NCBI GenBank assembly: GCA_947630685.1
Contig: CANRII010000001.1
Location: forward strand, 199-64,198
Direction: 5' to 3'
DNA: 64,000 nt
Source: an uncultured Ruminiclostridium sp.
GTDB taxonomy: Bacteria > Bacillota > Clostridia > Oscillospirales > Ruminococcaceae
The notes beneath the pieces are model-generated. The model did not search any database, was not told the DNA's origin, and saw only the letters and a list, made by a program, of their open reading frames with translations. A program made the position numbers and the translations under genes. Shown in pieces: positions 11,624 through 30,452 of the stretch (position 1 is its first letter; the number at the start of each line of letters is the position of its first letter).

Positions 11624-11644
11624 TTTTTTTGGGAGGTCGCAAAA

Positions 11645-11941
11645 ATGACGATAAGCAAAAAACAAAACGGAACAGAGCTTGAGATAGCGCTGGAGGGCAG
11701 GCTGGACACCACCACCGCCCCGCAGCTTGAGGGCGAGCTTAAGCACAGTATAGACGGCGTTACCGATCTTATAATGGACTTTTCCAAGCTGGAGTATATT
11801 TCCTCCGCGGGACTGCGCGTTCTGCTTGCCGCTCAAAAGGTGATGAACAGACAAGGCAGTATGGTTATACGCGGCGTAAACGAAACGGTCATGGAAGTAT
11901 TTGAGATAACCGGCTTTGTAGATATACTTACGATAGAATAA
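11645..11941 (+). CDS. STAS-domain anti-sigma factor antagonist (RsbV/SpoIIAA-like)
   Basis: LEGRLDTTTA and DFSKLEYISSAGLRVLL with the phosphorylatable Ser. Confidence 0.92.
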   Translation: MTISKKQNGTELEIALEGRLDTTTAPQLEGELKHSIDGVTDLIMDFSKLEYISSAGLRVLLAAQKVMNRQGSMVIRGVNETVMEVFEITGFVDILTIE

Positions 11942-11943
11942 GC

Positions 11944-13560
11944 ATGGCAAAGAAACGGAAATTCAATCTTCAGCCGAAGCTGCTCATAGGTCTTGTACTT
12001 ATGGCGATCGTGCTGATGTTTTCGCTCATATCCATTCTTATAATCATCTTCTGCGGCGTAATGTACCAATATTACTCCTGGGTAACATTCGACAACGCCT
12101 CCGTCTGCTCCTACGTCATCGACGGCGACCGCATAGAGCGGTATTACAATAACGGCAAGATAGGCGAAAAAGACGATTACTATGAAATGATAGGCGATTA
12201 TCTGCTTGAGGTGAAAAATCAAGTCGGACTGCAATACCTGTATGTAGCCGTTCCCGAGCAGGACAACATAGTTTATGTATGGGACGCGGGCGCTCCCGAC
12301 GAGGATGGCATACATAAGCTCGGCGAATCAATACAGATGTTCGGCGAGATAAAGGACGTAATGCAGACAGCTTACGCGGGCGGCGCGGATATGCTCGACT
12401 CCGTACTATTCACCGAAAGCTCCGCCGTGGCTTTTGTTCCGCTGCTGAATAGTGACAACAAGCCGGTGGCGCTGATAGCGGTAAGCATTCCTATCGAAAG
12501 AGTAAGCCGTCACGTCGAAACGTTTACCGTGCTTGCGCTGATATCCACGATCGTCGTGATGCTCATCTCCTCATTCTTTTACTATCTTTATATCCGTAAA
12601 ATACTCGTCCGTCCTTTGAGGAATCTCCACCATGCCGTTACCGGACTGGTAAGCGACAATATGGAACACCTTGACAGCTTCGACTTAAAAATTAAAACCA
12701 GGGACGAGGTGGGCGACCTTGCCAACGGATTTAATCAGATGGTGAAAGAGCTTAACGAGTACATTAACAATCTCAGCCGCGTTACCGCGGAAAAAGAGCG
12801 TATAGGCGCGGAGCTTGACGTCGCTACTCATATCCAGAAGTCTATGCTCCCCTGCACTTTCCCGGCGTTCCCCGACCGAAAGGAGATAGACATATACGCT
12901 ACCATGACCCCCGCAAAGGAGGTCGGCGGAGATTTCTACGACTTCTTTATGGTGGACGACAGACATCTTGCGATAGTAATGGCGGACGTTTCCGGCAAGG
13001 GCGTTCCCGCGGCGCTGTTTATGGTAATAGGCAAAACGCTTATCAAAGACCATACCGTCCCCGGTTACGATCTCGGTGCGGTGTTCACCGAGGTAAACGA
13101 TCTTTTATGCGAATCAAACAGCGAGGGACTGTTTATAACGGCGTTCGAGGGCGTACTTGACCTTGTCACCGGAGAATTTAATTATGTGAACGCGGGACAT
13201 GAAATGCCGTTTATCTGCCGTTCGGGTGAAAATTTCGCGCCGTATAAGATAAAGGCGGGATTCGTGCTTGCGGGCATGGAGGGAATGAGGTACCGCGCGG
13301 GCAGCCTTACGCTTGCGCCGGGAGATAAGGTATTCCAGTACACCGACGGCGTTACCGAGGCGACAAATTCCGATAACGAGCTTTACGGTATGGAAAGACT
13401 GGAAAATGTGCTGAACCTCAACAAGGACAGCGCTCCTGCCGAGCTTCTCCCCAAGGTAAAAGAGGATATCGACGCGTTTGTAGGCGAGGCTCCTCAGTTT
13501 GACGATATAACGATGCTTTGTCTTGAATATAAGAGCAGAATGGAGGATAACAATGAATGA
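11944..13560 (+). CDS. Membrane sensor PP2C/SpoIIE phosphatase with HAMP domain (RsbU-like)
   Basis: Two TM helices flanking an extracellular domain, HAMP (DEVGDLANGFNQM), EVGGDFYD, DVSGKG, YTDGVTEA, DDIT. Confidence 0.92.
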   Translation: MAKKRKFNLQPKLLIGLVLMAIVLMFSLISILIIIFCGVMYQYYSWVTFDNASVCSYVIDGDRIERYYNNGKIGEKDDYYEMIGDYLLEVKNQVGLQYLYVAVPEQDNIVYVWDAGAPDEDGIHKLGESIQMFGEIKDVMQTAYAGGADMLDSVLFTESSAVAFVPLLNSDNKPVALIAVSIPIERVSRHVETFTVLALISTIVVMLISSFFYYLYIRKILVRPLRNLHHAVTGLVSDNMEHLDSFDLKIKTRDEVGDLANGFNQMVKELNEYINNLSRVTAEKERIGAELDVATHIQKSMLPCTFPAFPDRKEIDIYATMTPAKEVGGDFYDFFMVDDRHLAIVMADVSGKGVPAALFMVIGKTLIKDHTVPGYDLGAVFTEVNDLLCESNSEGLFITAFEGVLDLVTGEFNYVNAGHEMPFICRSGENFAPYKIKAGFVLAGMEGMRYRAGSLTLAPGDKVFQYTDGVTEATNSDNELYGMERLENVLNLNKDSAPAELLPKVKEDIDAFVGEAPQFDDITMLCLEYKSRMEDNNE

Positions 13561-13960
13561 ACTGACCGTTGACGCGACGGTGGAAAATATCCCTACAGTC
13601 ACGGATTTTGTAGACGAACAGCTCGAGGCTCACGGCTGCCCGATGAAAGCGCAAATGCAGATAGACATCGCCATAGACGAGCTGCTCAGCAACATAGCGT
13701 ATTATGCCTACAGCTCCGGTTCGGGGACCGTCACCATCCGCGTGGAGATAGCCGAAGAGCCGCTTTCCGTTCTGATAACGTTCATAGATAACGGCGTACC
13801 TTACGACCCGCTTAAAAAAGAAGACCCCGACACCACGCTTTCCGCAGACCAAAGAGATATAGGCGGGCTTGGGATATACATGGTCAAAAAAAGCATGGAC
13901 GGCGTCGAATATGAATATAAAGACGGTCAGAACGTTCTCAAAATAACCAAAAAATTCTAA
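13553..13960 (+). CDS. Anti-sigma factor Ser/Thr kinase (RsbW/SpoIIAB-like)
   Basis: DELLSNIAYYAY, FIDNGVPYDP, GGLGIYMVK; GGAGG RBS before ATG 13553. Confidence 0.9.
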   Translation: MNELTVDATVENIPTVTDFVDEQLEAHGCPMKAQMQIDIAIDELLSNIAYYAYSSGSGTVTIRVEIAEEPLSVLITFIDNGVPYDPLKKEDPDTTLSADQRDIGGLGIYMVKKSMDGVEYEYKDGQNVLKITKKF

Positions 13961-14085: not shown

Positions 14086-14304
14086 TCAAATATACATAAA
14101 CGTACTTCTTCCTCCGGCGACATTTTCAAGCGCTTCATCGGAAAGCTCCGTGCCGGAACGCAGCGTATCGTACAGCTCTTTGGCCTTTTCCTCGGAAAGC
14201 TCAAAGCCGTCTTCCTTTGCCAAAGCTATAAGCTCCTCCGGCGAGTTTGCTTTGTTAAGCTTTTGCAAAAGCTCCTCTTTAGTCATAATAGTATGTTCAG
14301 CCAT
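14086..14304 (-). CDS. Nif11-like leader double-glycine precursor peptide P1
   Basis: Leader ends LSDEALENVAGG; core RSTFMYI. Confidence 0.85.
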   Translation of the reverse strand: MAEHTIMTKEELLQKLNKANSPEELIALAKEDGFELSEEKAKELYDTLRSGTELSDEALENVAGGRSTFMYI

Positions 14305-14354
14305 TTTCGCTTTCCTCCTTTAGATAGGTTTTTGAAGCAAAGGCGAAAAATCGA

Positions 14355-14651
14355 TCACCCTTCCGACCATAACGTTTCGGTGAAAAATTTATCGACTGCT
14401 TTAACGCCTTTTTCAATACCCTTTGCTATATCCTTCCAGAAATCAAGGCAGGAATATCCGCCCGCAACTCCTTCGAGCGCGTCGTCGGAAAGCTCGCCCT
14501 CGGCGTGCAGCGTATCGTACAGCTCTTTGGCCTTTTCCTCGGAAAGCTCAAAGCCGTCTTCCTTTGCCAAAGCTACAAGCTCCTCCGGCGAGTTTGCTTT
14601 GTTCAGCTTTTGCATAAACTCCTCTTTAGTCATAATAGTCTGTTCAGCCAT
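14355..14651 (-). CDS. Nif11-like leader precursor P2
   Basis: LSDDALEGVAGG; core YSCLDFWKDIAKGIEKGVKAVDKFFTETLWSEG. Confidence 0.88.
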   Translation of the reverse strand: MAEQTIMTKEEFMQKLNKANSPEELVALAKEDGFELSEEKAKELYDTLHAEGELSDDALEGVAGGYSCLDFWKDIAKGIEKGVKAVDKFFTETLWSEG

Positions 14652-14682
14652 TTTTTATTATCCTCTTCCGCTGTCTTAAAGC

Positions 14683-15078
14683 TCAAGACCAAGTGCGTTT
14701 GCAATCACCGCAGTAATATTTTTGGGTCTTCTCGCTATACGCTGTATTTTTGCGCGAATGGCAGTAGGGGCAGTCTATGCCCTGAGTAACGTCCCTGAAC
14801 GCTTCGGGTATCGTTTCGGTGAAAAATTTACCTATACTCTCAACGCCCTTTGCTATATCTTTCCAGAAATCAAGGCAGGAATATCCGCCCGCAACTCCCT
14901 CGAGCGCGTCGTCGGGAAGCTCGCCCTCGGCGTGCAGCGTATCATATAGTTTTTCGGAGTCTTCCACGGAAAGCTCGAAGCCGTCTTCCTTTGCCAAAGC
15001 TATAAGCTCCTCCGGCGAGTTTGCTTTGTTGAGCTTTTGCATAAACTCCTCTTTAGTCATAATAGTCTGTTCAGCCAT
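14683..15078 (-). CDS. Nif11-like leader precursor P3 (helix plus CxxC..CxxC core)
   Basis: Core YSCLDFWKDIAKG...CPYC-16aa-CGDC. Confidence 0.88.
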   Translation of the reverse strand: MAEQTIMTKEEFMQKLNKANSPEELIALAKEDGFELSVEDSEKLYDTLHAEGELPDDALEGVAGGYSCLDFWKDIAKGVESIGKFFTETIPEAFRDVTQGIDCPYCHSRKNTAYSEKTQKYYCGDCKRTWS

Positions 15079-15109
15079 TTTTGTTATCTCCTTTCAAAAT
15101 TGTCGGCAG

Positions 15110-15340
15110 TTAAACGAGAGTACGGAACGGACCTATACGGTCGCCGCCTCCTCCTCCGAGCCAGTATCCGCCCGCAACGCTTTCAAGCTGTTCATCGGTC
15201 AGCTCGCCGCCGCTCAGCTGCTCGAAAAGCTCTTTTGCCTTTTCGGGAGTCATTTCGATCCCGTTTTCCTTAGCAAGCGCGAGGATATCATCAGCGGATC
15301 TTACATCTTTCAGCTTTGCTAAAAATTCTTCCTTGTTCAT
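15110..15340 (-). CDS. Nif11-like leader precursor P4
   Basis: LTDEQLESVAGG; core YWLGGGGGDRIGPFRTLV. Confidence 0.88.
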   Translation of the reverse strand: MNKEEFLAKLKDVRSADDILALAKENGIEMTPEKAKELFEQLSGGELTDEQLESVAGGYWLGGGGGDRIGPFRTLV

Positions 15341-15386
15341 ATTTTCTCCTTTTACAACTAGCGATCTGATATTATCAGCGGACTTG

Positions 15387-15629
15387 TTAATAATTTATTA
15401 ATTTCACTCCGCTCATGCTCTCTATTATTTTAATTATCTCATCATCCATACTCCAGCCGCCGGCAACGTTTTGGAGCTGATCATCGGATAACTCGACCGA
15501 GTTTAATTTGCCGAAAAGCTCCTGTGCTTTGTCGGGAGCAATTTCAATGCCGTTTTCTTTGGCAAGAGCGATAATATCATCAGCGGACTTTGCACCTTTC
15601 AGCTTGGAAATAAATTCTTCCTTGTTCAT
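15387..15629 (-). CDS. Nif11-like leader precursor P5
   Basis: LSDDQLQNVAGG; core WSMDDEIIKIIESMSGVKLINY. Confidence 0.88.
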   Translation of the reverse strand: MNKEEFISKLKGAKSADDIIALAKENGIEIAPDKAQELFGKLNSVELSDDQLQNVAGGWSMDDEIIKIIESMSGVKLINY

Positions 15630-15774
15630 TTGTTTAAGCTCCTTTCAAGGGGGCAGATCAGAATAGTAGTTCCTTTATTCTCTTCTTTAATTTGTCCTTC
15701 AAATCCCCGCCTGCGACTTTGTCAAGTTCCTCGTCGGAAAGCTCGCAGTTTGAATTTATCTGATCAAACAGCTC
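15601..15774. repeat. 174-nt exact direct repeat (second copy 16330..16503)
   Basis: Spans the 3' half of P6/P9, the spacer and the first codons of the next precursor (P5/P8). Confidence 0.9.
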
Positions 15775-15882
15775 TTTTGCCTTTTCGGGGGTTAGCTCAA
15801 CACAGTTTTCCCTTGCAAGTACTAGAATATCGTCAGCAGATTTTGCTTCTTTTAGCTTGGCGATAAGTTCTTCATTGTTCAT
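15658..15882 (-). CDS. Nif11-like leader precursor P6
   Basis: LSDEELDKVAGG; core DLKDKLKKRIKELLF. Confidence 0.88.
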   Translation of the reverse strand: MNNEELIAKLKEAKSADDILVLARENCVELTPEKAKELFDQINSNCELSDEELDKVAGGDLKDKLKKRIKELLF

Positions 15883-15906
15883 GTGTTTGCCTCTTTCGTA
15901 AAAATT

Positions 15907-16132
15907 TTATTTTCCAAAAAGGCTACCGAACCACTCTTTGACTGTGTCAACTATGCCGCCCCCGGAAACAGTATCAAGCTGATCGTCGGATAACTCGACC
16001 GAGTTCATACTGTTGAAAATCTCTTGTGCCTTATCGGGGGGGTACGTCAACGCCGGCTTCTTTTGCCAACGCAATAATATCGTCGGCAGATTTTGCTGTT
16101 TTCAGATTTGCAATAAATTCTTCCTTAGTCAT
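15907..16132 (-). pseudogene. Nif11-like leader precursor P7, +1 frameshift in a C7 tract (absent from the ORF track)
   Basis: 226 nt from ATG to TAA. Removing one base from the run at 16036-16042 gives MTKEEFIANLK...LSDDQLDTVSGG-GIVDTVKEWFGSLFGK (74 aa); AAAGGAG RBS upstream. Confidence 0.85.
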
Positions 16133-16160
16133 GTCATTTGCTCCTTTAGCTTATCAATGA

Positions 16161-16358
16161 TCAATGGTATGTCCAGATGCTCATGCCGCCCGCAACGTTT
16201 TCTAACTGCTCATCGGAAAGCTCGCCGCCGCTTAGCTGCTCGAAAAGCTCTTCTGCCTTTTCGGGAGTCATTTCGATCCCGTTTTCCTTAGCAAGAGCGA
16301 GGATATCGTCAGCGGACTTTGCCAATTTAAGCTTGGAAATAAATTCTTCCTTGTTCAT
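16161..16358 (-). CDS. Nif11-like leader precursor P8
   Basis: LSDEQLENVAGG; core MSIWTYH. Confidence 0.88.
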   Translation of the reverse strand: MNKEEFISKLKLAKSADDILALAKENGIEMTPEKAEELFEQLSGGELSDEQLENVAGGMSIWTYH

Positions 16359-16386
16359 TTGTTTAAGCTCCTTTCAAGGGGGCAGA

Positions 16387-16611
16387 TCAGAATAGTAGTT
16401 CCTTTATTCTCTTCTTTAATTTGTCCTTCAAATCCCCGCCTGCGACTTTGTCAAGTTCCTCGTCGGAAAGCTCGCAGTTTGAATTTATCTGATCAAACAG
16501 CTCCTGTGCCTTTTCGGGAGCAATTTCAATGCCGCTTTCATTAGCAAGCGCGATAATATCGTCGGCGGATTTTACGCCTTTAAGCCTTGCTAAAAATTCT
16601 TCCTTGTTCAT
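16387..16611 (-). CDS. Nif11-like leader precursor P9
   Basis: Core DLKDKLKKRIKELLF, identical to P6, on a different leader N-half. Confidence 0.88.
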   Translation of the reverse strand: MNKEEFLARLKGVKSADDIIALANESGIEIAPEKAQELFDQINSNCELSDEELDKVAGGDLKDKLKKRIKELLF

Positions 16612-16646
16612 ATCATTTGCTCCTTTAGTTGATCAATGATCAATGA

Positions 16647-16844
16647 TCAATGGTATGTCCAGATGCTCATGCCGCCCGCGACGTTTTCCAGCTGCTCGTC
16701 GGAAAGCTCATTGCCGCTCATCTGCTCGAAAAGCTCTTTCGCCTTGTCGGGGGTCATCTCAACGCCGTTTTCCTTTGCAAGCGCTAGAATATCATCAGCG
16801 GATTTTGCATCTTTCAGCTTGGCTAAAAATTCTTCCTTGTTCAT
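16647..16844 (-). CDS. Nif11-like leader precursor P10
   Basis: Core MSIWTYH. Confidence 0.88.
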   Translation of the reverse strand: MNKEEFLAKLKDAKSADDILALAKENGVEMTPDKAKELFEQMSGNELSDEQLENVAGGMSIWTYH

Positions 16845-16872
16845 ATCATTTGCTCCTTTAGTTGATCAATGA

Positions 16873-17070
16873 TCAATGGTATGTCCAGATGCTCATGCCG
16901 CCCGCGACGTTTTCCAGCTGCTCGTCGGAAAGCTCATTGCCGCTCAGCTGCTCGAAAAGCTCTTTTGCCTTATCGGTAGTCATTTCTATCCCGTTTTCCT
17001 TAGCAAGCGCGATAATATCGTCAGCGGATTTTACGCCTTTCAGCTTGGCTAAAAAATCTTCCTTTTTCAT
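16873..17070 (-). CDS. Nif11-like leader precursor P11
   Basis: Start reassigned to MKKEDF (ATG 17070) by homology with its siblings; core MSIWTYH. Confidence 0.85.
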   Translation of the reverse strand: MKKEDFLAKLKGVKSADDIIALAKENGIEMTTDKAKELFEQLSGNELSDEQLENVAGGMSIWTYH

Positions 17071-17092
17071 AACATCAGCCTCATTTCGGATT

Positions 17093-17326
17093 TTAATCGT
17101 TATTGTTTGGAAACGGGATAATAAAGTCTTTTTCCCAAATAATGCGGCTGCCGCCGGCAACATTGTCAAGCTCGTCGTCGGACATTTCGCCGCTTGCGGT
17201 TATCCGCTCGAAAAGCTCCTTTGCCTTATCGGGAGTTATCTCTATCCCGTTTTCTTTAGCAAGCGCGATAATATCATCGACGGATTTTACGCCTTTCAGC
17301 TTGGCTAAAAAATCTTCCTTGTTCAT
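17093..17326 (-). CDS. Nif11-like leader precursor P12
   Basis: Start MNKEDF (ATG 17326) after AAAGGAG; core SRIIWEKDFIIPFPNNND. Confidence 0.85.
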   Translation of the reverse strand: MNKEDFLAKLKGVKSVDDIIALAKENGIEITPDKAKELFERITASGEMSDDELDNVAGGSRIIWEKDFIIPFPNNND

Positions 17327-17399
17327 GTTAAGCTCCTTTCGTAAGGTGGGTGGCATACGGGCGTCAGCCGAAAAGGCATCGTCCCGTATGCCTGAACTT

Positions 17400-17627
17400 T
17401 TAGTATTTATACACCGCGATCCATACGTCCGGACCTAAAAGATCGGCAAGGTCTTTTCTTCCGCCCGCAACATTGTCAAGCTCGTCGTCGGATAATTCGT
17501 TTATCTTGTCGAAAAGCTCCTTTGCCTTATCGGGAGCGATCTCTAAGCCGTTTTCTTTTGCAAGAGCGATAACGTCATCGACGGACTTTGCATTCGTCAG
17601 CTTTTTGATAAATTCTTCCTTGTTCAT
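17400..17627 (-). CDS. Nif11-like leader precursor P13
   Basis: LSDDELDNVAGG; core RKDLADLLGPDVWIAVYKY. Confidence 0.88.
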   Translation of the reverse strand: MNKEEFIKKLTNAKSVDDVIALAKENGLEIAPDKAKELFDKINELSDDELDNVAGGRKDLADLLGPDVWIAVYKY

Positions 17628-17655
17628 AAGTTTGACCCTCTCTTTTAATAAGTCG

Positions 17656-17901
17656 TTAAAGTTGGATCTTTATGATCTGTCCGTGACCCTCCGCATAACA
17701 GCAGTCTTCGCAGTTATAACCGCTGGTGCCGCCGGAACGGATATATACTATCCTCTTTGAACCGCAGTTCGGACAGCCGTTCGCCCAACTTTTTATATAT
17801 TCGGGAGAACCCTCTTTCGGAAGCGACGTGTCATTCGATCCGCCCGAAACGCTTTCAAGCTGGTCGTCGAGAAGCTCCGCGTTTTTATCTGATCTTTCCA
17901 T
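17656..17901 (-). CDS. Short-leader double-glycine precursor P14 (CxxC..CxxC core)
   Basis: 21-aa leader ending LLDDQLESVSGG; core contains CPNC-17aa-CEDC. Confidence 0.82.
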   Translation of the reverse strand: MERSDKNAELLDDQLESVSGGSNDTSLPKEGSPEYIKSWANGCPNCGSKRIVYIRSGGTSGYNCEDCCYAEGHGQIIKIQL

Positions 17902-17923
17902 AGTAATTCCTCCTTAAGCCGCT

Positions 17924-18286
17924 TTAATCCTTCTTAGTCATAGATGATACGGCTGCGCTCGTGGAAACTTGTGCTAAAGACTTTGTAAAGTCCGCGAAGC
18001 CCTCGAAATATTCGGGTATGTCCTTTGTGAAGAAGTCCTTTACATCCTCTGTAAAGAATTTATCTATAGACTTGAAAACGTCGGTGAGCCAGCTGCCGCC
18101 GGAAACGCCCTCAAGCTCATCGTCGGAAAGCTCGCCCTCAGCGTGCATGGAATCAAATAATTTCTGCGCGTTTTCCGGACTTAACTCCGCGTCGTACACC
18201 TTAGCAAACTCTATCAGCTCCTCCGGGGACTTCGCACTCATTAACTGAGCCTGAAATTCTTCCTTAGTGAATACTTGCTCTTCCAT
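17924..18286 (-). CDS. Nif11-like leader precursor P15
   Basis: LSDDELEGVSGG; core SWLTDVFKSIDKFFTEDVKDFFTKDIPEYF... Confidence 0.88.
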   Translation of the reverse strand: MEEQVFTKEEFQAQLMSAKSPEELIEFAKVYDAELSPENAQKLFDSMHAEGELSDDELEGVSGGSWLTDVFKSIDKFFTEDVKDFFTKDIPEYFEGFADFTKSLAQVSTSAAVSSMTKKD

Positions 18287-18328
18287 GGTGATTATCCTCC
18301 TTTATCGACCGTAAATTGGGGTCGTTTT

Positions 18329-18691
18329 TTACATTAAGCCTAAACCTTTTGCCGCCTCGCCCACTATGACTTTAGCGGTAGTTTCATACGCATCCGGTAA
18401 TGTTTCGGTAAAGAATTTGGGTACGTCCTTTGTGAAGAAGTCCTTTACATCCTCTGTAAAGAATTTATCTATAGACTTAAAAGCGTCGGTGAGCCAGCAG
18501 CCGCCGGAAACGCCCTCAAGCTGATCGTCGGAAAGCTCGCCCTCGACGTGCATAGAATCAAACAATTTCTGCGCGTTTTCCGGACTTAACTCCGCGTCGT
18601 ACACCTTAGCAAACTCTATCAGCTCCTCCGGGGACTTCGCACTCATTAACTGAGCCTGAAATTCTTCCTTAGTGAATACTTGCTCTTCCAT
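18329..18691 (-). CDS. Nif11-like leader precursor P16
   Basis: Core CWLTDAFKSIDKFFTEDVKDFFTKDVPKFFTETLPDA... Confidence 0.88.
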   Translation of the reverse strand: MEEQVFTKEEFQAQLMSAKSPEELIEFAKVYDAELSPENAQKLFDSMHVEGELSDDQLEGVSGGCWLTDAFKSIDKFFTEDVKDFFTKDVPKFFTETLPDAYETTAKVIVGEAAKGLGLM

Positions 18692-18733
18692 GGTGATTAT
18701 CCTCCTTTATCGACCGTAAATTGGGGTCGTTTT

Positions 18734-19099
18734 TTACATTAAGCCTAAACCTTTTGCCGCCTCGCCCACTATGACTTTAGCGGTAGTTTCATACGCATCC
18801 GGTAATGTTTCGGTAAAGAATTCGGGTACGTCCTTTGTGAAGAAGTCCTTTACATCTTTGGTAAAGAATTTATCTATAGACTTAAAAGCGTCGGTGAGCC
18901 AGCAGCCGCCGGACACGCCCTCAAGCTGATCGTCGGAAAGCTCTCCCTCGACGTGCATGGAATCAAACAATTTCTGCGCGTTTTCCGGGCTTAACTCCGC
19001 GTCGTACACCTTAGCGAACTCTATCAGCTCCTCCGGGGATTTTGCGCTCATTAACTTCTCCTGAAATTCTTCCCTGGTGAGTGTTCTTGCCTCTTCCAT
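18734..19099 (-). CDS. Nif11-like leader precursor P17
   Basis: Near-duplicate of P16 (2 core substitutions). Confidence 0.88.
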   Translation of the reverse strand: MEEARTLTREEFQEKLMSAKSPEELIEFAKVYDAELSPENAQKLFDSMHVEGELSDDQLEGVSGGCWLTDAFKSIDKFFTKDVKDFFTKDVPEFFTETLPDAYETTAKVIVGEAAKGLGLM

Positions 19100-19153
19100 G
19101 TGATTATCCTCCTTTATAGACCGTAAATTTTTATGGGGCGTTTTTGCCCAAAA

Positions 19154-19441
19154 TTATTCAAAAACGTGTCCGCAGAACTTACATACATAATGATACGCCT
19201 TTGTAGGAAAGCCCTTTGGTACAAGCCGGGAATCGGTCACCTGCTCTATCTCAATATCATATTTGCCGCAATACATACATCTTGACGGCTTTTCGGGAAT
19301 AGCGCTGAGCGGCGTGCTTGAATCAGAACCGTATATTACTTTTCCGAACGGCGTTTGCATTTCAAACCACATACCGCTGCCGCCCGACACCGTTTCAAGC
19401 TCTTCGTCGGAAAGCTCGTTCCTCTTTTCCTCTTTGCTCAT
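19154..19441 (-). CDS. Short-leader double-glycine precursor P18 (CxxC..CxxC core)
   Basis: 21-aa leader ending LSDEELETVSGG; core contains CMYC-28aa-CKFC. Confidence 0.82.
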   Translation of the reverse strand: MSKEEKRNELSDEELETVSGGSGMWFEMQTPFGKVIYGSDSSTPLSAIPEKPSRCMYCGKYDIEIEQVTDSRLVPKGFPTKAYHYVCKFCGHVFE

Positions 19442-19456
19442 AATTATCCCTTTCTA

Positions 19457-19846
19457 TTATGATTTTACAAGCTTGCCGCAGTGTTTGCACCTGATCTTTT
19501 GGACGCCGAATTGCCATTCTATCGTAAAGCCTTCGCGTGAACCGCACCACTGGCAATCAGCGCCGTAGAAAATATCTTTGAATTTGTCGCTTATTGCATC
19601 ACCTAATGATTCAAACGTTTCTTTCACGCTTTTTAAAAAGCTGCTTAAGCTTCCTCCCGCTACGCTTTCAAGCTCATCGTCGGAAAGCTCTCCCTCGGCG
19701 TGCAGAGCATCAAACAATTTCTGCGCGTCTTCCGGGCTCAGTTCGAGGTTGCATTCATTAGCGAACGCTATCAGATCCTCCGGAGACTTTGCTTTCTTTA
19801 ACAGCTCCTTTATTTCTTCATCGGTGATTTTTTTCGCTTCTTCCAT
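19457..19846 (-). CDS. Nif11-like leader precursor P19 (helix plus CxxC..CxxC core)
   Basis: Core SLSSFLKSVKETF...CQWC-18aa-CKHC. Confidence 0.88.
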   Translation of the reverse strand: MEEAKKITDEEIKELLKKAKSPEDLIAFANECNLELSPEDAQKLFDALHAEGELSDDELESVAGGSLSSFLKSVKETFESLGDAISDKFKDIFYGADCQWCGSREGFTIEWQFGVQKIRCKHCGKLVKS

Positions 19847-19946
19847 AGTAAATTATCCTCCTTTATCGACCGTAAATTTTTTGGGGTCGTTTTTGCTTGT
19901 TTTTTTGCCGTATCGGCGAAATTAAACCACTATCTGCCCGTAAATC

Positions 19947-20309
19947 TCAGTTTTTCTTGGTCTTTATCACATACTGGCAGTTGCCGCAAATGGTTTTTAT
20001 AACTCCCTTGTCGCTCTGCTGGTAGCTCTTGCGCGAACCGCACCTCGGGCAATCCGCACCTACAAACAGATCAGCTATTTTGTCGCCGAGATTCTTAAAG
20101 AAGTCTGTAAAAGCGTTTCCGCCCGCAACATCCTCAAGCTGCTCGTCGGCAAGCTCGCCCTCAGAATGAAGTGCGGCGAACATGGCCTTAGCGTCCTGCT
20201 CGCTTATGGTCACTCCGTTGCCATCCGCGATAGCGATAAGCTCGTCGGGAGACTTTGCCGCCTTGATCTTAGCAAGTATCTCCTCGTTGGTTATTGTTTT
20301 CTCTTCCAT
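19947..20309 (-). CDS. Nif11-like leader precursor P20 (helix plus CxxC..CxxC core)
   Basis: Core NAFTDFFKNLGDKIADLF...CPRC-17aa-CGNC. Confidence 0.88.
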   Translation of the reverse strand: MEEKTITNEEILAKIKAAKSPDELIAIADGNGVTISEQDAKAMFAALHSEGELADEQLEDVAGGNAFTDFFKNLGDKIADLFVGADCPRCGSRKSYQQSDKGVIKTICGNCQYVIKTKKN

Positions 20310-20364
20310 GTTTTTCCTCCTTTATAATATTTAACTGTTTATTTTTAATGCTTGAAACAGCATT

Positions 20365-20799
20365 TTAATGTAACCACGTATAGCCGCAGTTGCAGCATTT
20401 ATAGTTATACTGACCGCCCGCCTGGGCAGATACGCCAAGCTCTTCTTTAGTGTTTATTGAGCCGCAGCTGGGGCATTTTACATATTTTAGCAGCCTGTCT
20501 ATACCCTCGCCCGCTAGCTTAAACGCTTCCGGCACATCTTTCGTGAATACTTTTTCTACGGCTTTAGCCGCTTTTTTTATTCCCTCTCCTATGTCGCAGA
20601 AGATGCATCCGCCCGAAACCTCAGCAAGCTCATCGTCGGAAAGCTCGCCCATAGCCATCGCGCTTTCATACATCTTCTTTGCGGTCTCCTCACTTACGGT
20701 AACGCCGTTTTCTTTAGCAAGCGCCATTACCCCCTCGGGAGAACCCGCCTCTCTGAATTTTGCAAACAGTTCTTCTTGGCTTATAGTTTTTTCTTCCAT
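20365..20799 (-). CDS. Nif11-like leader precursor P21 (helix plus CxxC..CxxC core)
   Basis: Core CIFCDIGEGIKK...CPSC-22aa-CCNC (80 aa). Confidence 0.88.
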   Translation of the reverse strand: MEEKTISQEELFAKFREAGSPEGVMALAKENGVTVSEETAKKMYESAMAMGELSDDELAEVSGGCIFCDIGEGIKKAAKAVEKVFTKDVPEAFKLAGEGIDRLLKYVKCPSCGSINTKEELGVSAQAGGQYNYKCCNCGYTWLH

Positions 20800-20824
20800 A
20801 TCAATACCTCCTTATGGAAATTAA

Positions 20825-22093
20825 TTACATCTTTAAGTTAGGACAAACAAGCGGCTCTTCGTCGTCCGCGGTCGCCTGTATGCCTACCTGTCTTAACTGC
20901 TCCGCAAAGCCGTCCGACAATGCGTTTCCCGCAAATTCCTGTAAAAACGTAATGCAGAAGTTGCCGCCCACGGCGTTTACTTCAAATAATACATGGCTCG
21001 CGGCAGGGTCTACATAGGTAAATATCGACTTTATATAAGGCTCTAACGCTCCGAGCCGCTGTATATGCACATAGCTTACCGTGAGGTCTACGAACACCTT
21101 GTTCATCTGCGACGATTTTTGAAACGCCTCATGCACCGCGTCGTAATCGCCGAGCGCTAATATCTTTTGTTCCTTTTGCAATCGGTTCTTCACCGCGTTC
21201 AGCATATATTCCTGTGAGGACTGGTGATCCATCATCTGACGGGTAACGCCGCACAGCTTATCCATCGGCATATTTCTCATCTGCTCGGTATAATTCAGCA
21301 CGATATTGCCCAGCACGTTGTTATGCGCTTTCGGAGCTTTTACCGCGTCGCGGTAGTTTTTCATAAGTATCGTTCTGAACGGGTGATTAAGCTTTTCGCA
21401 AAGGTCGAATACCGTTTTCGCCAAGAGATTGGACATCACTATCGCGGGAGTGCCGCCGTTTGCCTTGACGTACTCCATGAATTCGTCCTCCGGCACCGAC
21501 ATTCTGCGCGCCGTTTTACAAACGGGACAGCCGGGAAGTATCTCCTCCCATTGCACGGCGGGCTCGACAGCCTGCGGATTGTGCTTAGGAGCTTCTTCCT
21601 TTGCGGGCTCTATATCAAGATACGGGTCTTTTCGTTCCTCCTCGGTGACAGGATCGTCTAATGTTCTGATACCGTCCGCGGGAAAGCTCTTTTTATATTT
21701 TTCGGTTATGTAGTAATACAGCGTAGTTTTGATAAACTCCAGTATACCCGTTTCGTCGGTTATAGAATGTACTATATCAAAATATACCGTGCTGCCCTCA
21801 TAATTTACCGCAAGCGCGTGCTCGTTCGACTGCTCCGACAGCAGCAGTACCGGAGTTATCCCCTCGGTTATAACTATCTGCTTATCGTTAGGCAGTACCG
21901 AATGTAAAAGCTCGCCCTCTTCGCGGACAAATTTTACCGAATAGTAATCGTAACGCTTTATCGCAATATCCACCGCCTTGCGCAAAGCGGCGGGGTCTAT
22001 ATTTTCGTTAAGCTCCACCGCGGTTCTTACGGTGTGCTGTACGTTTTCGTCGGAACGGTAAAATCCCGATATCCCCGACGGATTGTTCTTCAT
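20825..22093 (-). CDS. CoA-dependent acyltransferase, condensation/CAT fold (alcohol acetyltransferase-like)
   Basis: IDPAALRKAVDIAIKRY N-terminal motif, HSITDETG (HxxxD catalytic motif), FIKTTLYYY, 422 aa. These resemble the clostridial AATase/condensation family. Confidence 0.7.
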   Translation of the reverse strand: MKNNPSGISGFYRSDENVQHTVRTAVELNENIDPAALRKAVDIAIKRYDYYSVKFVREEGELLHSVLPNDKQIVITEGITPVLLLSEQSNEHALAVNYEGSTVYFDIVHSITDETGILEFIKTTLYYYITEKYKKSFPADGIRTLDDPVTEEERKDPYLDIEPAKEEAPKHNPQAVEPAVQWEEILPGCPVCKTARRMSVPEDEFMEYVKANGGTPAIVMSNLLAKTVFDLCEKLNHPFRTILMKNYRDAVKAPKAHNNVLGNIVLNYTEQMRNMPMDKLCGVTRQMMDHQSSQEYMLNAVKNRLQKEQKILALGDYDAVHEAFQKSSQMNKVFVDLTVSYVHIQRLGALEPYIKSIFTYVDPAASHVLFEVNAVGGNFCITFLQEFAGNALSDGFAEQLRQVGIQATADDEEPLVCPNLKM

Positions 22094-22136: not shown

Positions 22137-22628
22137 TTAGTCGGTATATCCCGCTTCTTCTAAAAAACGCCTTAGCTTTTTTAATGCGCTGTACTGTAAA
22201 AATCTCACGTTGGAATAGCTTACGCCGACGCGCTCCGCCGTTTCCTTTGAGGAAAGTCCGTGATAAAATCTAAGCACTATTATCTTTCGTTCTCTGTCCG
22301 GCAATTGTTCTAACGCTAACGCTAAGGATTCAAGGTTCTCGTTTGTAAGTATCCTGTCGTCCTGAGCCGGTATAAGCTCGATATCTTCGGCTGTAGGCTC
22401 GCGGGAGAGCTTTCTGTAATAATCGTTTACCGCGTTTCTCGTTATCGCGTACAGCCATGTGCCTATCGCGCCGCGCGACGGGTCGTAGCTTTCAAGAGCG
22501 GAAATGGCGTTCAAAAACACCTGATGCACTATATCGGCTCTGTCATGCTCGTTTTGCACATGGGAGCATATATATCTTTCTACCTTTTCGCGGTAACCGT
22601 TATACAGCTCTTCGGGGGTGATGGTCAT
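22137..22628 (-). CDS. ECF-subfamily RNA polymerase sigma factor
   Basis: Region 2 DIVHQVFL...YDPSRGAIGTWLYAITRN; region 4 LPDRERKIIVLRFYHGLSSKETAERVG. Confidence 0.92.
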   Translation of the reverse strand: MTITPEELYNGYREKVERYICSHVQNEHDRADIVHQVFLNAISALESYDPSRGAIGTWLYAITRNAVNDYYRKLSREPTAEDIELIPAQDDRILTNENLESLALALEQLPDRERKIIVLRFYHGLSSKETAERVGVSYSNVRFLQYSALKKLRRFLEEAGYTD

Positions 22629-22813
22629 GGCTTTTCATCGCCTCCCGTTTCGGCGCGCCACGTTTCATTCTCTCCCGCGGCGTTAAGCTCAAGGTCGCTG
22701 TCGTCCAGAGGTACGCCCATGTCCTCCGTGCGCACTATCCTTTCAAGGCGTTCGTTCTTTTGGAACTTTTGAAAATCGAACAATGCGCGCAGCAGTTTTT
22801 CGCTCTTATCCAT
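22625..22813 (-). CDS. Small protein with double-glycine-leader-like motif, translationally coupled to the ECF sigma
   Basis: 62 aa, GGAGG RBS, LFDFQKFQKNERL and LDDSDLELNAAG; ATGA overlap with the sigma start. Confidence 0.75.
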   Translation of the reverse strand: MDKSEKLLRALFDFQKFQKNERLERIVRTEDMGVPLDDSDLELNAAGENETWRAETGGDEKP

Positions 22814-22850: not shown

Positions 22851-22877
22851 ATACGTTGAGCGGTAGTGTTTTGTTAG
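22851..22877 (-). promoter_or_regulatory. Possible ECF-type promoter upstream of the small ORF-sigma operon
   Basis: Minus strand ctAACa...CGTAt with 17 nt between AAC and CGT, matching the general ECF AAC/CGT pattern. The motif is short and weak. Confidence 0.35.
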
Positions 22878-22897: not shown

Positions 22898-25105
22898 TCA
22901 GCTGTTTACCGGCTCTTTGTCGTCAAGGCGCTGACGCGCTACCAGCTCGGCAAATTTTCCGTTTAAGGCTATAAGCTCGTCGTAAGTGCCCTCCTCGGCG
23001 ATCTTGCCCTTTTCAAGATATATTATCCTGTCGCATTGCTTTATGGTGGAAAGCCTGTGCGCTATCACTATCCTTGTGCATTTAAGGCTGTTCAGCGAAT
23101 CGGAAACGGTCTTTTGCGTGATGTTGTCCAGCGCGCTGGTCGCCTCGTCGAACATAAGTATCTTAGGCCTCGGCGCTATCGCTCTGGCTATCATAAGGCG
23201 CTGACGCTGACCGCCGGAAACGCCGCCGCTGCCCTCGGAGATGATAGTGTTCATTCCCATAGGCATTCTGCGTATGTCCTCCGCTATGCCGGAAAGCTCC
23301 GCCGCCTCCCACGCTTCGTCCATGGTGAGCCACGGCGCGGAAATGGTGATGTTAGAGAATATATCCCCCTGGAACAGCTTGCCGTTTTGCATTACCGTGC
23401 CTATACTGCGGCGCAATGATTTAAGGTCAAGGCTGGAAATATCCTTGCCGTCGTAGTATACCGAGCCTTTCTGCGGAGTTTCAAAGCCCAGCATTACTCT
23501 CATAAGCGTGGATTTACCGCAGCCAGTAGTGCCTACTATCGCGACATACTGACCCGGCCGTATCTTAAGCGACAGATCGTCAAGGACGTTGGGCATGCTG
23601 TCGCTGTAGCGGAACGAAATGTTGTTCAGCTCTATCCCGCCGGAAAGCCTTGTCACTACTTCCTTGCCCTCGGATATTTCGGGTGTAGCGTCAAGTATCG
23701 GCTTTGCCATATCCAATACCGGCTTGATATTCGCCGCGGTGAGCGCTATCCCCGCAAGGGACATGAACGCGCCGGACACCATGCCGTACGCGGTATTGAA
23801 CGCGTAGTAATCCGCTACCGACACGTTGCTTACCACCGCGAGATAATACATAACGAATGTTCCCGCAAGGCTTATAATAGTGGTAAATACCGAGTTGTAT
23901 CTTATTAAAGTCGGCGGGTCGTACAGCAGCTTAGCCTCTTTTGAGTACAGGCTGCCCCATTTGGCGAACGCGCGCCGCTCCGCACCGGACAGCTTTATCT
24001 TCTGGACGCCGGTTATCAGCGCATAATCAAGACCGCTGACCTTAGCGCCGTGCTCCATCTGCTGCTTTGATATTTTCATCTGAGCCAATGCGCTTATCAC
24101 CGAAAACAGCACCGTAACGATTATTATTATCAGCGCGGGAACCACCAGCGTCGGCGCAAACGCGAATATCTGCGCTATATACACCAGCGAGAACACCGAG
24201 GTAAGACCGGTAGAAAGCACCGTATCCACCAGCATGGAGCATATCATATTTATGTACTGCGTTCTTACCGACAGCTCGCCGGAGCTGTATTTTTTGAAAA
24301 ACGACGCGGGTAGTGACATGACGCGCGCCATGGTCGCCGCCTGCACGGTAACGTCCATTTTCGTGCGTATCCTCGCCATAATAAGCGATTTTATCGTGCT
24401 TATCATCAGTGTGGATATTGACAGGCATATCATAAACACCGCTATAGACATAAGCAGCGTAAGATCCTTGTTATCCACTACCAGACCGAAAAGCAGCTGA
24501 TTGAGCTTAGGCGTCAGCATACCTACAACGGTAGCGGCCAGCGTCACCGTTGCCGCTATCAGATAATCCGATACCGATAAGATACCGGCTATGTATTTTA
24601 GCAGGCTGCCTATACTTAACTTCTTTAGCGGGAACGGCTTGTAAAAGGCGACAGCGTCCTCCTCAAACAGCCCCTCGTTCTTTTTGGATATCTTGACGGT
24701 CTTACCGGTCGTGCGGTCGTAGTATGAATACCCCGACATACCGCTGGGTATCAATGCGGCAACGCTGCCGTCCGACTTCATCACCGCGAGCATAGCTCCG
24801 AACGCGTCCTTATACCACCCTTTTTCAAGGGTGACGTTTCTGCGCATGATACCGTGCGGCCGCATGAGATATTCAAGCTGCTCGTTGGTATCCTTTATCG
24901 TATCCGGTACGTCTTTTGATCTCGTTTTGATATGATAATAGCTTAGTATCTCGTCGATAGCGTCCTTAGCGCGGCTCTTATCGTCGGCGAACGCGTCGGA
25001 TATATGCGTTCCGGTCACCGCGTCGGATATGCTTATAAACGCCTCCTCGAAGGTGCTGAGGTCTTTTTCCTTTCGCTGTTTTATCTGTTCATCGAACCAA
25101 CCCAT
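22898..25105 (-). CDS. NHLM/NHLP bacteriocin export ABC transporter, permease/ATPase subunit (TIGR03797-like)
   Basis: Degenerate peptidase-like N-domain without catalytic Cys, ABC membrane domain, GTTGCGKS Walker A, VSGGQRQR, FDEATSALD. Confidence 0.9.
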   Translation of the reverse strand: MGWFDEQIKQRKEKDLSTFEEAFISISDAVTGTHISDAFADDKSRAKDAIDEILSYYHIKTRSKDVPDTIKDTNEQLEYLMRPHGIMRRNVTLEKGWYKDAFGAMLAVMKSDGSVAALIPSGMSGYSYYDRTTGKTVKISKKNEGLFEEDAVAFYKPFPLKKLSIGSLLKYIAGILSVSDYLIAATVTLAATVVGMLTPKLNQLLFGLVVDNKDLTLLMSIAVFMICLSISTLMISTIKSLIMARIRTKMDVTVQAATMARVMSLPASFFKKYSSGELSVRTQYINMICSMLVDTVLSTGLTSVFSLVYIAQIFAFAPTLVVPALIIIIVTVLFSVISALAQMKISKQQMEHGAKVSGLDYALITGVQKIKLSGAERRAFAKWGSLYSKEAKLLYDPPTLIRYNSVFTTIISLAGTFVMYYLAVVSNVSVADYYAFNTAYGMVSGAFMSLAGIALTAANIKPVLDMAKPILDATPEISEGKEVVTRLSGGIELNNISFRYSDSMPNVLDDLSLKIRPGQYVAIVGTTGCGKSTLMRVMLGFETPQKGSVYYDGKDISSLDLKSLRRSIGTVMQNGKLFQGDIFSNITISAPWLTMDEAWEAAELSGIAEDIRRMPMGMNTIISEGSGGVSGGQRQRLMIARAIAPRPKILMFDEATSALDNITQKTVSDSLNSLKCTRIVIAHRLSTIKQCDRIIYLEKGKIAEEGTYDELIALNGKFAELVARQRLDDKEPVNS

Positions 25106-27311: not shown

Positions 27312-27833
27312 TCAATTAAACAAGAACATTATCGGAGAAATACTGTCGGTTATTATCTCCGCCTTATATGTGCCGCTGGGAAAAGAAGCGCCCAGCTTTA
27401 TCGGGTATACCCATTCGCCCTCCATAAGGTCAAAAGCGTGCATGGTATACTCGTTGAACGTGTTTTTATCCACCGTGATAGGCTCCTCGGAGATCTCCTC
27501 TATCGGGTATTCCTTGTTGTCTATCCTTACGGGATCGTCAAGAGATACCCGTTCTATATCCCCCTCTTTGACAAAACAGAACGCTATCTCGTCCATACCC
27601 GCTTCCTGCGCCTGCGGTACGAGGTCTTGGAGCCCTTGCACCGACAAAACGACGCATTCGACCTTGGTCTCTATCTTGCCTACCGCGCCCCATACGATAA
27701 ATCCTATCAGCAGGAGTATCACCGCGCCCAGCGTCAGCCAGATACCGGGACTGGTCACCCGTATGTAGTCGTTGAGCTGCTCCGGAGAGGAGACGCGCTC
27801 TATGCTCTTTTCTCTGAAAATATTGTTTGCCAT
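27312..27833 (-). CDS. NHLP bacteriocin system secretion accessory protein (short form, TIGR03794-like N-terminus)
   Basis: IFREKSIERVSSPEQLNDYIRVTSP followed by one TM helix. Confidence 0.85.
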   Translation of the reverse strand: MANNIFREKSIERVSSPEQLNDYIRVTSPGIWLTLGAVILLLIGFIVWGAVGKIETKVECVVLSVQGLQDLVPQAQEAGMDEIAFCFVKEGDIERVSLDDPVRIDNKEYPIEEISEEPITVDKNTFNEYTMHAFDLMEGEWVYPIKLGASFPSGTYKAEIITDSISPIMFLFN

Positions 27834-27890: not shown

Positions 27891-29339
27891 TTATTTTGCC
27901 AAAGCGCCGGACGAAGTTCCTTTTTTTCCGTACCATATCAACGCAACTGCATATGCAGCGGTAAGCACTCCCGCTATCGTATAGCTTATCGCCCACGGTA
28001 AATTAAATCCGATAGCCGCGTTGAGGATAAAGCTGGATATCACGAACATATAGAACATACCCGGCAGCAACGCCATGATAAACGGCTTTTTATGCCGTAT
28101 CATGTATATCGCTATCATGGCGAACGCGAACACCGCTATGGTCTGATTTGCCCATGCGAAATACCGCCAAAGTATATTGAATCCGCCGCTGTTCACCTTA
28201 GCGAACACCAGCACCGCCGCCGTTACCGCGAATATTATCAGCGACACGCCGAGCCTTTTTTTAGTCTTGGTCTGGTCTATTTTGAGCGCGTCGGAGATTA
28301 TCAGCCTGAGCGAACGCAAAGCGGTATCGCCGGAGGTTATCGGCAGTACGATAATACCTATCACCGCTATTATGCCGCCGACTCCGCCGAGCAGGTTTTT
28401 GGCGATTATCCCCACCACTTCGGTAGCCTCGGTCTCGGCTCCGGCAAGTCCCAGCTTCATTACGCCCATAGCGGCAGCCGCCCATATCATGGCGATGAAG
28501 CCCTCGGCTATCATCATATTGTAAAAGGTCATGCGGCCTTCCTTTTCGCTGCGCATCGTGCGTGAAATAAGCGTCGCCTGCGTGGAATGAAAGCCGGATA
28601 CTATTCCGCACGCTACGGTAACGAAGAACACCGGTATAAAGTTTAGCCCCTGCGGGTGAACGCCCAGTCCCGTCGTCCATATCTCGTCCAGCGGATAACC
28701 CTTTATCAAAAAGCCTATGAACACGCCTATCGCCGATATTATCAGCAGCAGTCCGAATATGGGATATACCTTTCCGATTATCTTATCTATAGGAAATAAA
28801 GTGGCTATGATATAATATACGAATATCGCGCCGTACACTATCCACACTATGGGATTTGTCACGCCGTTGTCCGCGCCGAGTATCTGCGTTACAAACAAAT
28901 CGCCCGGGGTATAGATAAACACCGTGCCTACCAGCAGCATCAAAAGGCAGACGAACACGTTATAGATAGGATAAGCATACTTGCCGAGATACTTTCTTAT
29001 AAGTCCCGGCATCTGCGCGCCGTCGTTTCGCACCGATATCATGCCGGACATATAATCGTGGAACGCTCCGCCTATCACGCAGCCTATCGGGATAGTCAAA
29101 AAGGCGATAGGTCCGAAAAGAATGCCCTGTATCGGACCGAGTATAGGCCCCGTTCCCGCGATGTTCAGCAATTGTATCAGCGAGTTTTTCCACTTTTTCA
29201 TCGGAACATAGTCCACGCCGTCGTTGAGCCGCACCGCTGGAGTTTCGCGGTCGTCCGGCTTAAAGACCTTTTCGCAGAATTTGCCGTATACCGCTCCTCC
29301 CACGATAAGAAGCGCAAGTCCTATAAAGAATGTAACCAT
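27891..29339 (-). CDS. cstA: Carbon starvation protein A (CstA) family transporter
   Basis: TPAVRLNDGVDYVP, IAGTGPILGP, CGIVSGFHSTQ, TSGDTALRSLR; highly hydrophobic. Confidence 0.88.
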   Translation of the reverse strand: MVTFFIGLALLIVGGAVYGKFCEKVFKPDDRETPAVRLNDGVDYVPMKKWKNSLIQLLNIAGTGPILGPIQGILFGPIAFLTIPIGCVIGGAFHDYMSGMISVRNDGAQMPGLIRKYLGKYAYPIYNVFVCLLMLLVGTVFIYTPGDLFVTQILGADNGVTNPIVWIVYGAIFVYYIIATLFPIDKIIGKVYPIFGLLLIISAIGVFIGFLIKGYPLDEIWTTGLGVHPQGLNFIPVFFVTVACGIVSGFHSTQATLISRTMRSEKEGRMTFYNMMIAEGFIAMIWAAAAMGVMKLGLAGAETEATEVVGIIAKNLLGGVGGIIAVIGIIVLPITSGDTALRSLRLIISDALKIDQTKTKKRLGVSLIIFAVTAAVLVFAKVNSGGFNILWRYFAWANQTIAVFAFAMIAIYMIRHKKPFIMALLPGMFYMFVISSFILNAAIGFNLPWAISYTIAGVLTAAYAVALIWYGKKGTSSGALAK

Positions 29340-30423: not shown

Positions 30424-30452
30424 ATTATATCATCTTTTTACATTTTTTTCAA
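30424..30452 (-). promoter_or_regulatory. Sigma-A type promoter with extended -10 (drives DUF3089-cstA-export genes)
   Basis: Minus strand TTGAAA-17 nt-TATAAT with TGA before the -10. Confidence 0.75.

Follow-up and report, generated by a model that had tools for sequence, protein, structure and literature searches.

ORF62 is a small hydrophilic protein of 62 amino acids encoded directly ahead of an extracytoplasmic function (ECF) sigma factor in the DNA of an uncultured Ruminiclostridium sp. (contig CANRII010000001.1, positions 199 to 64,198 of the forward strand; this whole stretch of 64,000 nucleotides is called the window, and its own numbering is used below). ORF62 is a genuine conserved gene under protein-level constraint and represents a large unannotated family found in Clostridia, whose members are encoded beside a sigma factor and, for the most part, beside a peptide exporter with a C39 peptidase domain. 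ORF62 and the sigma probably work as a sigma/anti-sigma pair, because the adjacency of the two genes, their coupling, a seemingly self-activated promoter, and the small helical form of ORF62 with its predicted disorder all fit such a relation. More tentatively, and with confidence a little below even, ORF62 is taken here for a small, disordered cytoplasmic regulator of the anti-sigma type that is read by the C39 domain of the exporter through a box resembling the leaders of the exporter's own cargo. The elements of the pair are listed below.

22851 to 22876, minus strand: putative ECF-type promoter, TAACAAAA-N17-CGTAT, upstream of ORF62
22625 to 22813, minus strand: ORF62, 62 amino acids, member of an unannotated family
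22733 to 22792, minus strand: N-terminal box of ORF62, residues 8–27 (LRALFDFQKFQKNERLERIV), candidate sigma-binding part
22673 to 22708, minus strand: leader-like box of ORF62, residues 36–47 (LDDSDLELNAAG)
22628 to 22672, minus strand: C-terminal tail of ORF62, residues 48–62 (ENETWRAETGGDEKP), variable family-wide
22137 to 22628, minus strand: ECF sigma factor, 163 amino acids, with Sigma70_r2 (residues 8–76) and Sigma70_r4 (residues 105–153) and no region 3

A ribosome-binding site (AGGAGG) precedes ORF62, the TGA stop of ORF62 and the ATG of the sigma gene overlap in a shared ATGA, and the final codons of ORF62 contain both the ribosome-binding site and the start of the sigma gene. The first-pass annotation of this DNA, made from the letters alone, had singled out a 62-residue open reading frame (ORF) that carries a leader-like motif and overlaps the sigma start, and its coordinates, the ATGA overlap, and the motif itself are all present in the sequence as described. 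The sigma factor scores 111 bits against TIGR02937 (cut-off of 42.9), its nearest solved relative is 6dxo, and, judging by its regions and length, it is an ordinary ECF (group 4) sigma. The coupling is not peculiar to the window: a sigma homologue adjoins the small ORF in all 22 of the 22 ORF-carrying genomes, usually with an overlap of 4–8 nucleotides, and even where the order is reversed, with the sigma gene coming first (G512), the two remain adjacent. In one member (P0175, genome G060, locus L074), the small ORF and the sigma gene are joined by in-frame read-through with TAG read as Gly, which is the sole natural case of this kind.

A word-based homologue search with ORF62 returned a single protein, 95% identical. 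Searches of genomes with hidden Markov models (HMMs) found homologues within the same family, order, and class, and when 1.84 billion representative proteins were scanned in full with HMMER, 1,180 clusters passed a threshold of E ≤ 1e-3 and 340 one of E ≤ 1e-10, with lengths of 55–130 amino acids in nearly all cases. ORF62 and 40 family members have no match in Pfam, NCBIfam, or the PDB, and no source names these proteins. The family consensus reads MExKLKxLFDYQRFxxNxRLxxLIxETExRYxxELsDDeLxxVNAAGE, followed by a variable tail. Among 40 diverse members, residues L8, L11, F12, D13, Q15, F17, N20, L23, and I27 of the N-terminal box are invariant or nearly so, full invariance is seen at F17, L36, D38, L41, A45, A46, and G47, and conservation is highest in the leader-like box. 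The tail ranges from 8 to 84 residues (median of 17), and the pattern ExxxWRxxT is common to the tails of the window's own subfamily. Three members (P0018, P0024, and P0051) have long tails past the AAGE box that are rich in glycine, contain GGL(S/T/A)G repeats, and resemble bacteriocin-type cargo. The dN/dS ratio (nonsynonymous to synonymous substitution) of ORF62 against its closest relative (L042) is uninformative, as only four codons differ.

The AlphaFold2 model of ORF62, computed from a 40-sequence alignment, has a mean pLDDT (predicted local distance difference test) of 67, with helices at residues 3–13 and 21–29 and no confident fold past residue 30; such low confidence is no proof of disorder, and the model is weak evidence, compatible with a protein that folds on its partner. 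Binding of the sigma by a single N-terminal helix had been suggested for ORF62; the model gives two short helices in its place, at low confidence. FlgM, NepR, and CnrY resemble such a chain of two short helices that is otherwise disordered. A similarity between the family and sigma factors, hinted at by two MAFFT alignments, was rejected (hhalign E = 0.39).

The footprint of the candidate promoter, TCTAACAAAA-N16/17-CGTAT, is kept in the window, in genomes G018 and G051, and at locus L042, against a spacer that has otherwise diverged. The AAC...CGT form is typical of ECF promoters. Over the whole genome, the strict pattern has one other match, which lies inside an ORF of 620 amino acids and is taken as chance, and it has no other intergenic copy. 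Neither a promoter motif shared by the regions before individual precursor genes nor a terminator-like site between the genes of the minus strand, from ORF62 to the precursor array, was seen. The genes that follow the pair on the same strand are these:

14086 to 22093, minus strand: a gene for a protein of 422 amino acids with an acyltransferase fold, followed by about 21 genes for precursors with Nif11 leaders (20799 to 14086)

The simplest reading is that ORF62, the sigma gene, the acyltransferase-fold gene, and the precursor genes probably constitute one self-activated operon. Co-expression of an inhibitor from a self-activated promoter is the usual design of sigma/anti-sigma systems. Within the array, a short hairpin of the form CGACCCCAA(T/A)TTACGGTCG stands directly before the ribosome-binding sites of precursors P15, P16, P17, and P19 (minus strand, 18287-18328, 18692-18733, 19100-19153, and 19847-19946), and a further hairpin is found ahead of precursor P12.

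On its other side, the pair is preceded by the exporter genes, and the order on the minus strand runs from CstA through the HlyD-like gene, ABC1, ABC2, ORF62, and the sigma gene to the acyltransferase-fold gene and the precursors:

27891 to 29339, minus strand: CstA
27312 to 27833, minus strand: short HlyD-like accessory protein, 173 amino acids, matching positions 1–65 only of TIGR03794
25118 to 27310, minus strand: ABC1, NHLM exporter subunit with a C39 peptidase domain (TIGR03796, 946.6 bits against a cut-off of 853.3; Peptidase_C39, 2e-36)
22898 to 25105, minus strand: ABC2, NHLM exporter subunit with no peptidase domain (TIGR03797, 721.7 bits against a cut-off of 709.4)

Both ABC subunits score above the curated cut-offs and, on these matches, make up a standard NHLM-type exporter pair of the peptidase-containing ATP-binding cassette transporter (PCAT) class; the C39 domain of ABC1 is the only one in the genome. 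The cytoplasmic N-terminal domain of ABC2 (residues 1–177; 24577-25105, minus strand) has no Pfam match and no C39 similarity, and it could serve as a docking site. In relatives, the HlyD-like stub is of a similar length (156–166 amino acids). The immediate neighbours of the pair are thus ABC2 upstream and the acyltransferase-fold gene downstream, and neither is a membrane anti-sigma gene, just as had been stated when this DNA was first annotated. Farther upstream, a strong sigma-70-type promoter match (30424-30452, minus strand; TTGAAA-17-TATAAT with a TG extension, 11/12) precedes a DUF3089 gene, and it may drive the DUF3089, CstA, and exporter genes separately from the ECF-type promoter.

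About 18 of the 22 genomes, loci cut by contig ends included, have the arrangement ABC1(C39)-ABC2-ORF-sigma without interruption, and they belong to at least 10 GTDB families plus three more families of the class. In an even sample of 401 genomes of the order, the small ORF and ABC1 occur together in 11, the ORF only in 5, ABC1 only in 17, and neither in 368 (odds ratio of 48, Fisher p = 8e-11). The linkage of ORF, sigma, and NHLM exporter, whose conservation the first-pass annotation had proposed to check, thus holds widely. Exceptions to the arrangement exist. The pair in G060 follows an array of short GG-leader precursors, with the exporters located elsewhere, and G112 (L024, G112:C7 7608-9560) has a broken ABC1 with an adenine deaminase gene inserted. 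Decayed cassettes were also observed in two other relatives (G583:C16 12868-16662 and G426:C22 29035-31122), with a fragment of the small ORF beside a truncated ABC gene, and ABC1 with an in-frame TGA. In the contexts of P0016 and P0154 (L127 and L131), the small ORF and sigma come immediately after a radical SAM/SPASM gene; one of these loci also has the exporter pair and a Nif11 precursor, and the other lacks any exporter over a distance of 9 kb. Two other families of the class (L126, G656:C4, 6875-15202; L125, G777:C14, 5212 to the contig end) have a gene for a giant surface protein, of 2,775 amino acids in G656, after the sigma gene instead of precursors.

The resemblance to exporter cargo resides in the leader-like box. 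The leaders of the window's precursors end in LSD[DE]xLExV[AS]GG, and an hhalign comparison of the ORF62 family with these Nif11 leaders aligns this box alone (15 columns, E = 2.6e-4, probability of 42%), placing it opposite ELSDDeLe-nVaGG. In the C39 domain of LahT, leader positions −4, −7, and −12 of LahT150 substrates are received by hydrophobic pockets, and changing these residues abolishes cleavage (PMC6363468). If the Ala-Ala of the family is set at −2/−1, hydrophobic residues occupy −4, −7, and −12 in 136 of the 150 family members examined, and these three anchors, together with the acidic residues and the two small residues, fit the leader register. The box ends in Ala-Ala-Gly in every one of the 150 and in Gly-Gly in none. 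From this geometry and the synteny with the exporter, it appears possible, at somewhat under an even chance, that the C39 domain recognises the box; against this speak the lack of Gly at −2, a genome with no C39 domain, and the weak copy in the window.

In the working proposed here, ORF62 and the sigma would be transcribed from the ECF-type promoter recognised by the sigma itself and would thus be made in equal amounts, and their transcript probably extends into the acyltransferase-fold gene and the 21 precursor genes. The N-terminal box (LFDFQ.F..N..L) would hold the sigma, while the C-terminal box would copy the amphipathic recognition helix of double-glycine leaders, with its acidic residues and hydrophobic anchors, Ala-Ala-Gly replacing Gly-Gly. 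The C39 peptidase domain of the adjacent exporter would then read the C-terminal box: with an idle exporter, docking would free the sigma, or slow cleavage would destroy the inhibitor, and precursor cargo would compete for the exporter, leaving the inhibitor on the sigma. By such docking and competition, precursor synthesis would be matched to export capacity.

Two versions of this scheme can be distinguished. In one, the C39 peptidase would be the trigger protease of a soluble anti-sigma: a cut after Ala-Ala (or after Ala-Gly in the window's subfamily) would give the sigma-binding fragment an xAA-COOH end, a ClpXP-type degron like those of cleaved RseA and RsdA, and destruction of the fragment would free the sigma; cargo would compete for the site, so that transcription of the peptide array would follow free export capacity, and a STAS/PP2C/RsbW module encoded in the same locus would supply an external signal through contact with the small protein. 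This version is regarded as rather improbable. In the other, ORF62 would be an uncleaved decoy shuttling between the sigma and an idle C39 domain. Removal of ORF62 by secretion through the leader-like motif, as the first-pass annotation had it on the example of FlgM, is not supported. PCATs cut the leader off inside the cell and export only the part C-terminal to the cut (PMC6363468); therefore, the putative sigma-binding N-terminus would stay in the cell, and FlgM-like removal does not follow. The absence of Gly at −2 and the existence of the pair in a genome with no C39 domain (G258) count against that mechanism as well.

The module just mentioned lies on the far side of the array, on the opposite strand:

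11645 to 13960, plus strand: partner-switching module identified by Pfam matches, comprising STAS (11645-11941), HAMP-PP2C (11944-13560), and an RsbW-like kinase (13523-13960)

The trio is encoded together in the window and in G051, and in a fused form in G258, and by its domains it is an RsbV/RsbW/RsbU-type module. In the window, it belongs to a block (9414-13960, plus strand) that also contains a LytTR regulator and a GHKL kinase and is inverted to the far side of the array relative to L022 (14500-20000). The genes of G051 all run collinearly on a single strand, in the order GHKL kinase, STAS, HAMP-PP2C, RsbW-like kinase, CstA, the stub, ABC1, ABC2, the small ORF, sigma, the acyltransferase-fold gene, and precursors. 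CstA is thus also a part of the travelling cluster. The RsbW-like kinase of the window is 8.7 kb away within the same locus, and it has a single strong homologue in most ORF-carrying genomes. In 9 genomes, this homologue and ABC1 share a strand and are 0.6–2.2 kb apart; in 2 more (G258, L123, G258:C2 9400-13400; G331, L124, G331:C6), it forms a fusion with PP2C just ahead of the small ORF, and the pair there comes directly after STAS and the PP2C::RsbW fusion. A single protein of about 945 amino acids unites the sensor, PP2C, and RsbW-like parts in one genus, and its gene directly precedes the small ORF and sigma. The initial remark on the absence of an anti-sigma gene is therefore sound for adjoining membrane anti-sigmas only, and it overlooks this conserved module.

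The small anti-sigma FlgM of Pseudomonas is bound by the STAS protein HsbA when the latter is unphosphorylated, and PP2C and RsbW-type domains occur together in HsbR (PMC6482189). The HsbR-HsbA-FlgM-FliA system of Pseudomonas aeruginosa resembles the present locus in that STAS, PP2C, and an RsbW-type kinase are encoded with a small protein and a sigma, the latter two domains being fused in G258 and G331 as they are in HsbR (PMC6482189). The systems differ in that HsbR has a receiver domain and the window a membrane HAMP sensor, and the sigma here is of the ECF type; the link is suggested by synteny. By this analogy, the module would probably serve as a second input, acting on ORF62 as HsbA does on FlgM. 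The classification paper on ECF sigmas (PMC7826278) does not mention an RsbW/STAS context.

A number of observations weigh against an anti-sigma read by the exporter. First, neither ORF62 nor the 40 family members contain a recognisable anti-sigma domain (zf-HC2/ZAS, RskA, NepR, CnrY, and similar), the family has no similarity to any known one, and the RsbW-like kinase could be the true anti-sigma. Second, the box departs from what is known of leaders. Known PCAT sites carry Gly at −2 (GG, GA, or GS) (PMC6363468), and none of the 150 family members has Gly at −2 with Gly, Ala, or Ser at −1. When the 39,223 ORFs of at least 30 codons in the genome are scored with a position matrix of the final 12 leader residues from the 21 window precursors, the ORF62 box obtains 1.1 bits and rank 283 of 39,223, true leaders scoring 35–44 bits; the likeness in the window copy alone is therefore weak and barely above chance, and it is convincing only across the family. 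Moreover, the window's subfamily lacks one residue of the box, so that −7 and −12 fit only with Ala-Gly at −2/−1, and only two of the three anchors fit in either register. The top match of the family profile, a repeat protein of 1,298 amino acids that is unrelated to the family (P0002), carries LSDASLDFTAAGE in each of its 15 repeats, which means that so short a box can turn up by itself in a fold with no relation to the family; its repeats presumably resemble carbohydrate-binding domains of the BACON type. Third, the association with the exporter is incomplete. The 97%-complete assembly G258 has an intact ORF-sigma pair and no C39 domain anywhere, in P0154 and in the genus of G331 the pair stands away from any such exporter, and the small ORF is absent from 17 of the 28 genomes with an NHLM ABC1. 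The 17 genomes with ABC1 only indicate that the ORF is one optional regulator of such exporters and not an obligate part of them.

The rival explanation that fares best, and is nevertheless held to be unlikely, is that ORF62 regulates the sigma while the exporter is irrelevant. The box would then serve for contact with the sigma, the STAS protein, or the RsbW-like kinase, its likeness to leaders being coincidental or a relic of origin, and control would be exerted via the partner-switching module, as with HsbR/HsbA on FlgM. The intact box in C39-less G258, with the pair placed directly after STAS and PP2C::RsbW there and likewise in G331, suits such a view, as do the RsbW-like gene in the cluster of most genomes, the poor score of the window box against the window's own leaders, and the recurrence of the same short box in an unrelated protein. 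The box also loosely resembles the phospho-loop of the window STAS protein (YISSAGL), with Ala at the position of the phospho-Ser. That last likeness is, however, not significant (E = 0.19, probability of 0.3%) and was rejected, the alignment with leaders being far better. The fit of anchors, acidic residues, and small residues to the leader register in the great majority of family members and the direct adjacency of ABC2 in about 18 of the 22 genomes likewise argue against this rival.

It is improbable that ORF62 is itself an exporter substrate, with residues 1–47 as a leader of its own type and the tail released outside as a signal or peptide product, and with the proximity of the sigma reflecting mere co-regulation. 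A conserved N-terminal part joined to a hypervariable tail is what peptide precursors look like, the box falls exactly at the boundary between the two, certain tails (P0018 and P0051) are long and glycine-rich like bacteriocin cores, the ExxxWRxxT pattern is kept in the window's subfamily, and the exporter genes are adjacent. Yet GG, GA, or GS never occurs at the site, there is one copy per locus, always paired with sigma even in C39-less genomes, most tails are short, acidic, and unconserved and overlap the start signals of the sigma gene, and no leader HMM was matched. A positive partner, that is, a stabiliser or co-factor of the sigma like ComW for ComX or RsoA for SigO, is a minority alternative to an anti-sigma and has a similarly slight chance: adjacency with translational coupling and small size suit an obligate partner too, and ComX/ComW also operate in a system with double-glycine exporters, but regions 2 and 4 of the sigma are complete, an activator co-expressed from a self-activated promoter would lead to runaway induction, and the family shows no similarity to RsoA, ComW, or sigma itself.

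Compared with known systems, an ORF62 read by the exporter would fit anti-sigma control by a secretion or proteolytic machine, in a variant form, with the sigma and the exporter both being ordinary. The likeness to FlgM and sigma-28 (FliA) is that of small proteins encoded with the system, ORF62 being, like FlgM, probably disordered for the most part, with an export machine proposed to set the activity of the sigma for cargo genes. FlgM, however, is exported whole and bears no sequence relation to ORF62, which has no match to the FlgM family PF04316; moreover, the sigma here is an ECF sigma, and only the part after the cut would leave. NepR and CnrY, short class II anti-sigmas, are similar in size (about 60–95 amino acids), in their two short helices that fold on binding, as predicted for ORF62, and in the control of ECF sigmas proposed for it, but they have neither sequence similarity to ORF62 nor linkage to an exporter. 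As to the regulated proteolysis of RseA, RsiW, and RsdA (10.1101/491043), a cut of the family proteins after Ala-Ala would leave V-x-A-A-COOH, like the VAA, GAA, and AAA termini of cleaved anti-sigmas recognised by ClpX; RseA, RsiW, and RsdA, however, sit in the membrane and are processed by site-1 and site-2 proteases, whereas here a C39 domain would act on a soluble protein. With the Nif11/NHLP double-glycine leaders cut by C39 domains such as that of LahT (PMC6363468), the family shares ELSDDEL..V, the hydrophobic residues that most members have at −12, −7, and −4, the small end residues, and the adjacent TIGR03796/TIGR03797 genes; it differs from them by the Ala-Ala-Gly end, the lack of a Nif11 domain, and the lack of any match of ORF62 to leader models (TIGR03798, PF07862, and similar), the window copy being, in addition, one residue short. 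By these comparisons of sequence, ORF62 belongs neither to a known anti-sigma family nor to a double-glycine leader family, the defining feature failing in each. The literature searches yielded no paper that connects an ECF sigma with a C39 exporter and a small partner.

If the proposed reading is true, the locus would provide a first example of an ECF sigma located within an RsbW/STAS/PP2C partner-switching cluster, none being described in PMC7826278. Furthermore, it would be a new mode of setting sigma activity, in which a peptide exporter reports its own load to a promoter via a small protein that mimics the address label of the cargo. More than 1,000 clusters of small proteins from Clostridia of the gut and rumen, at present unannotated, would also receive a name and a role open to testing. 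Finally, the compact cassette of promoter, small protein, and sigma would flag loci for peptide natural products and could help in genome mining and in the activation of silent clusters.

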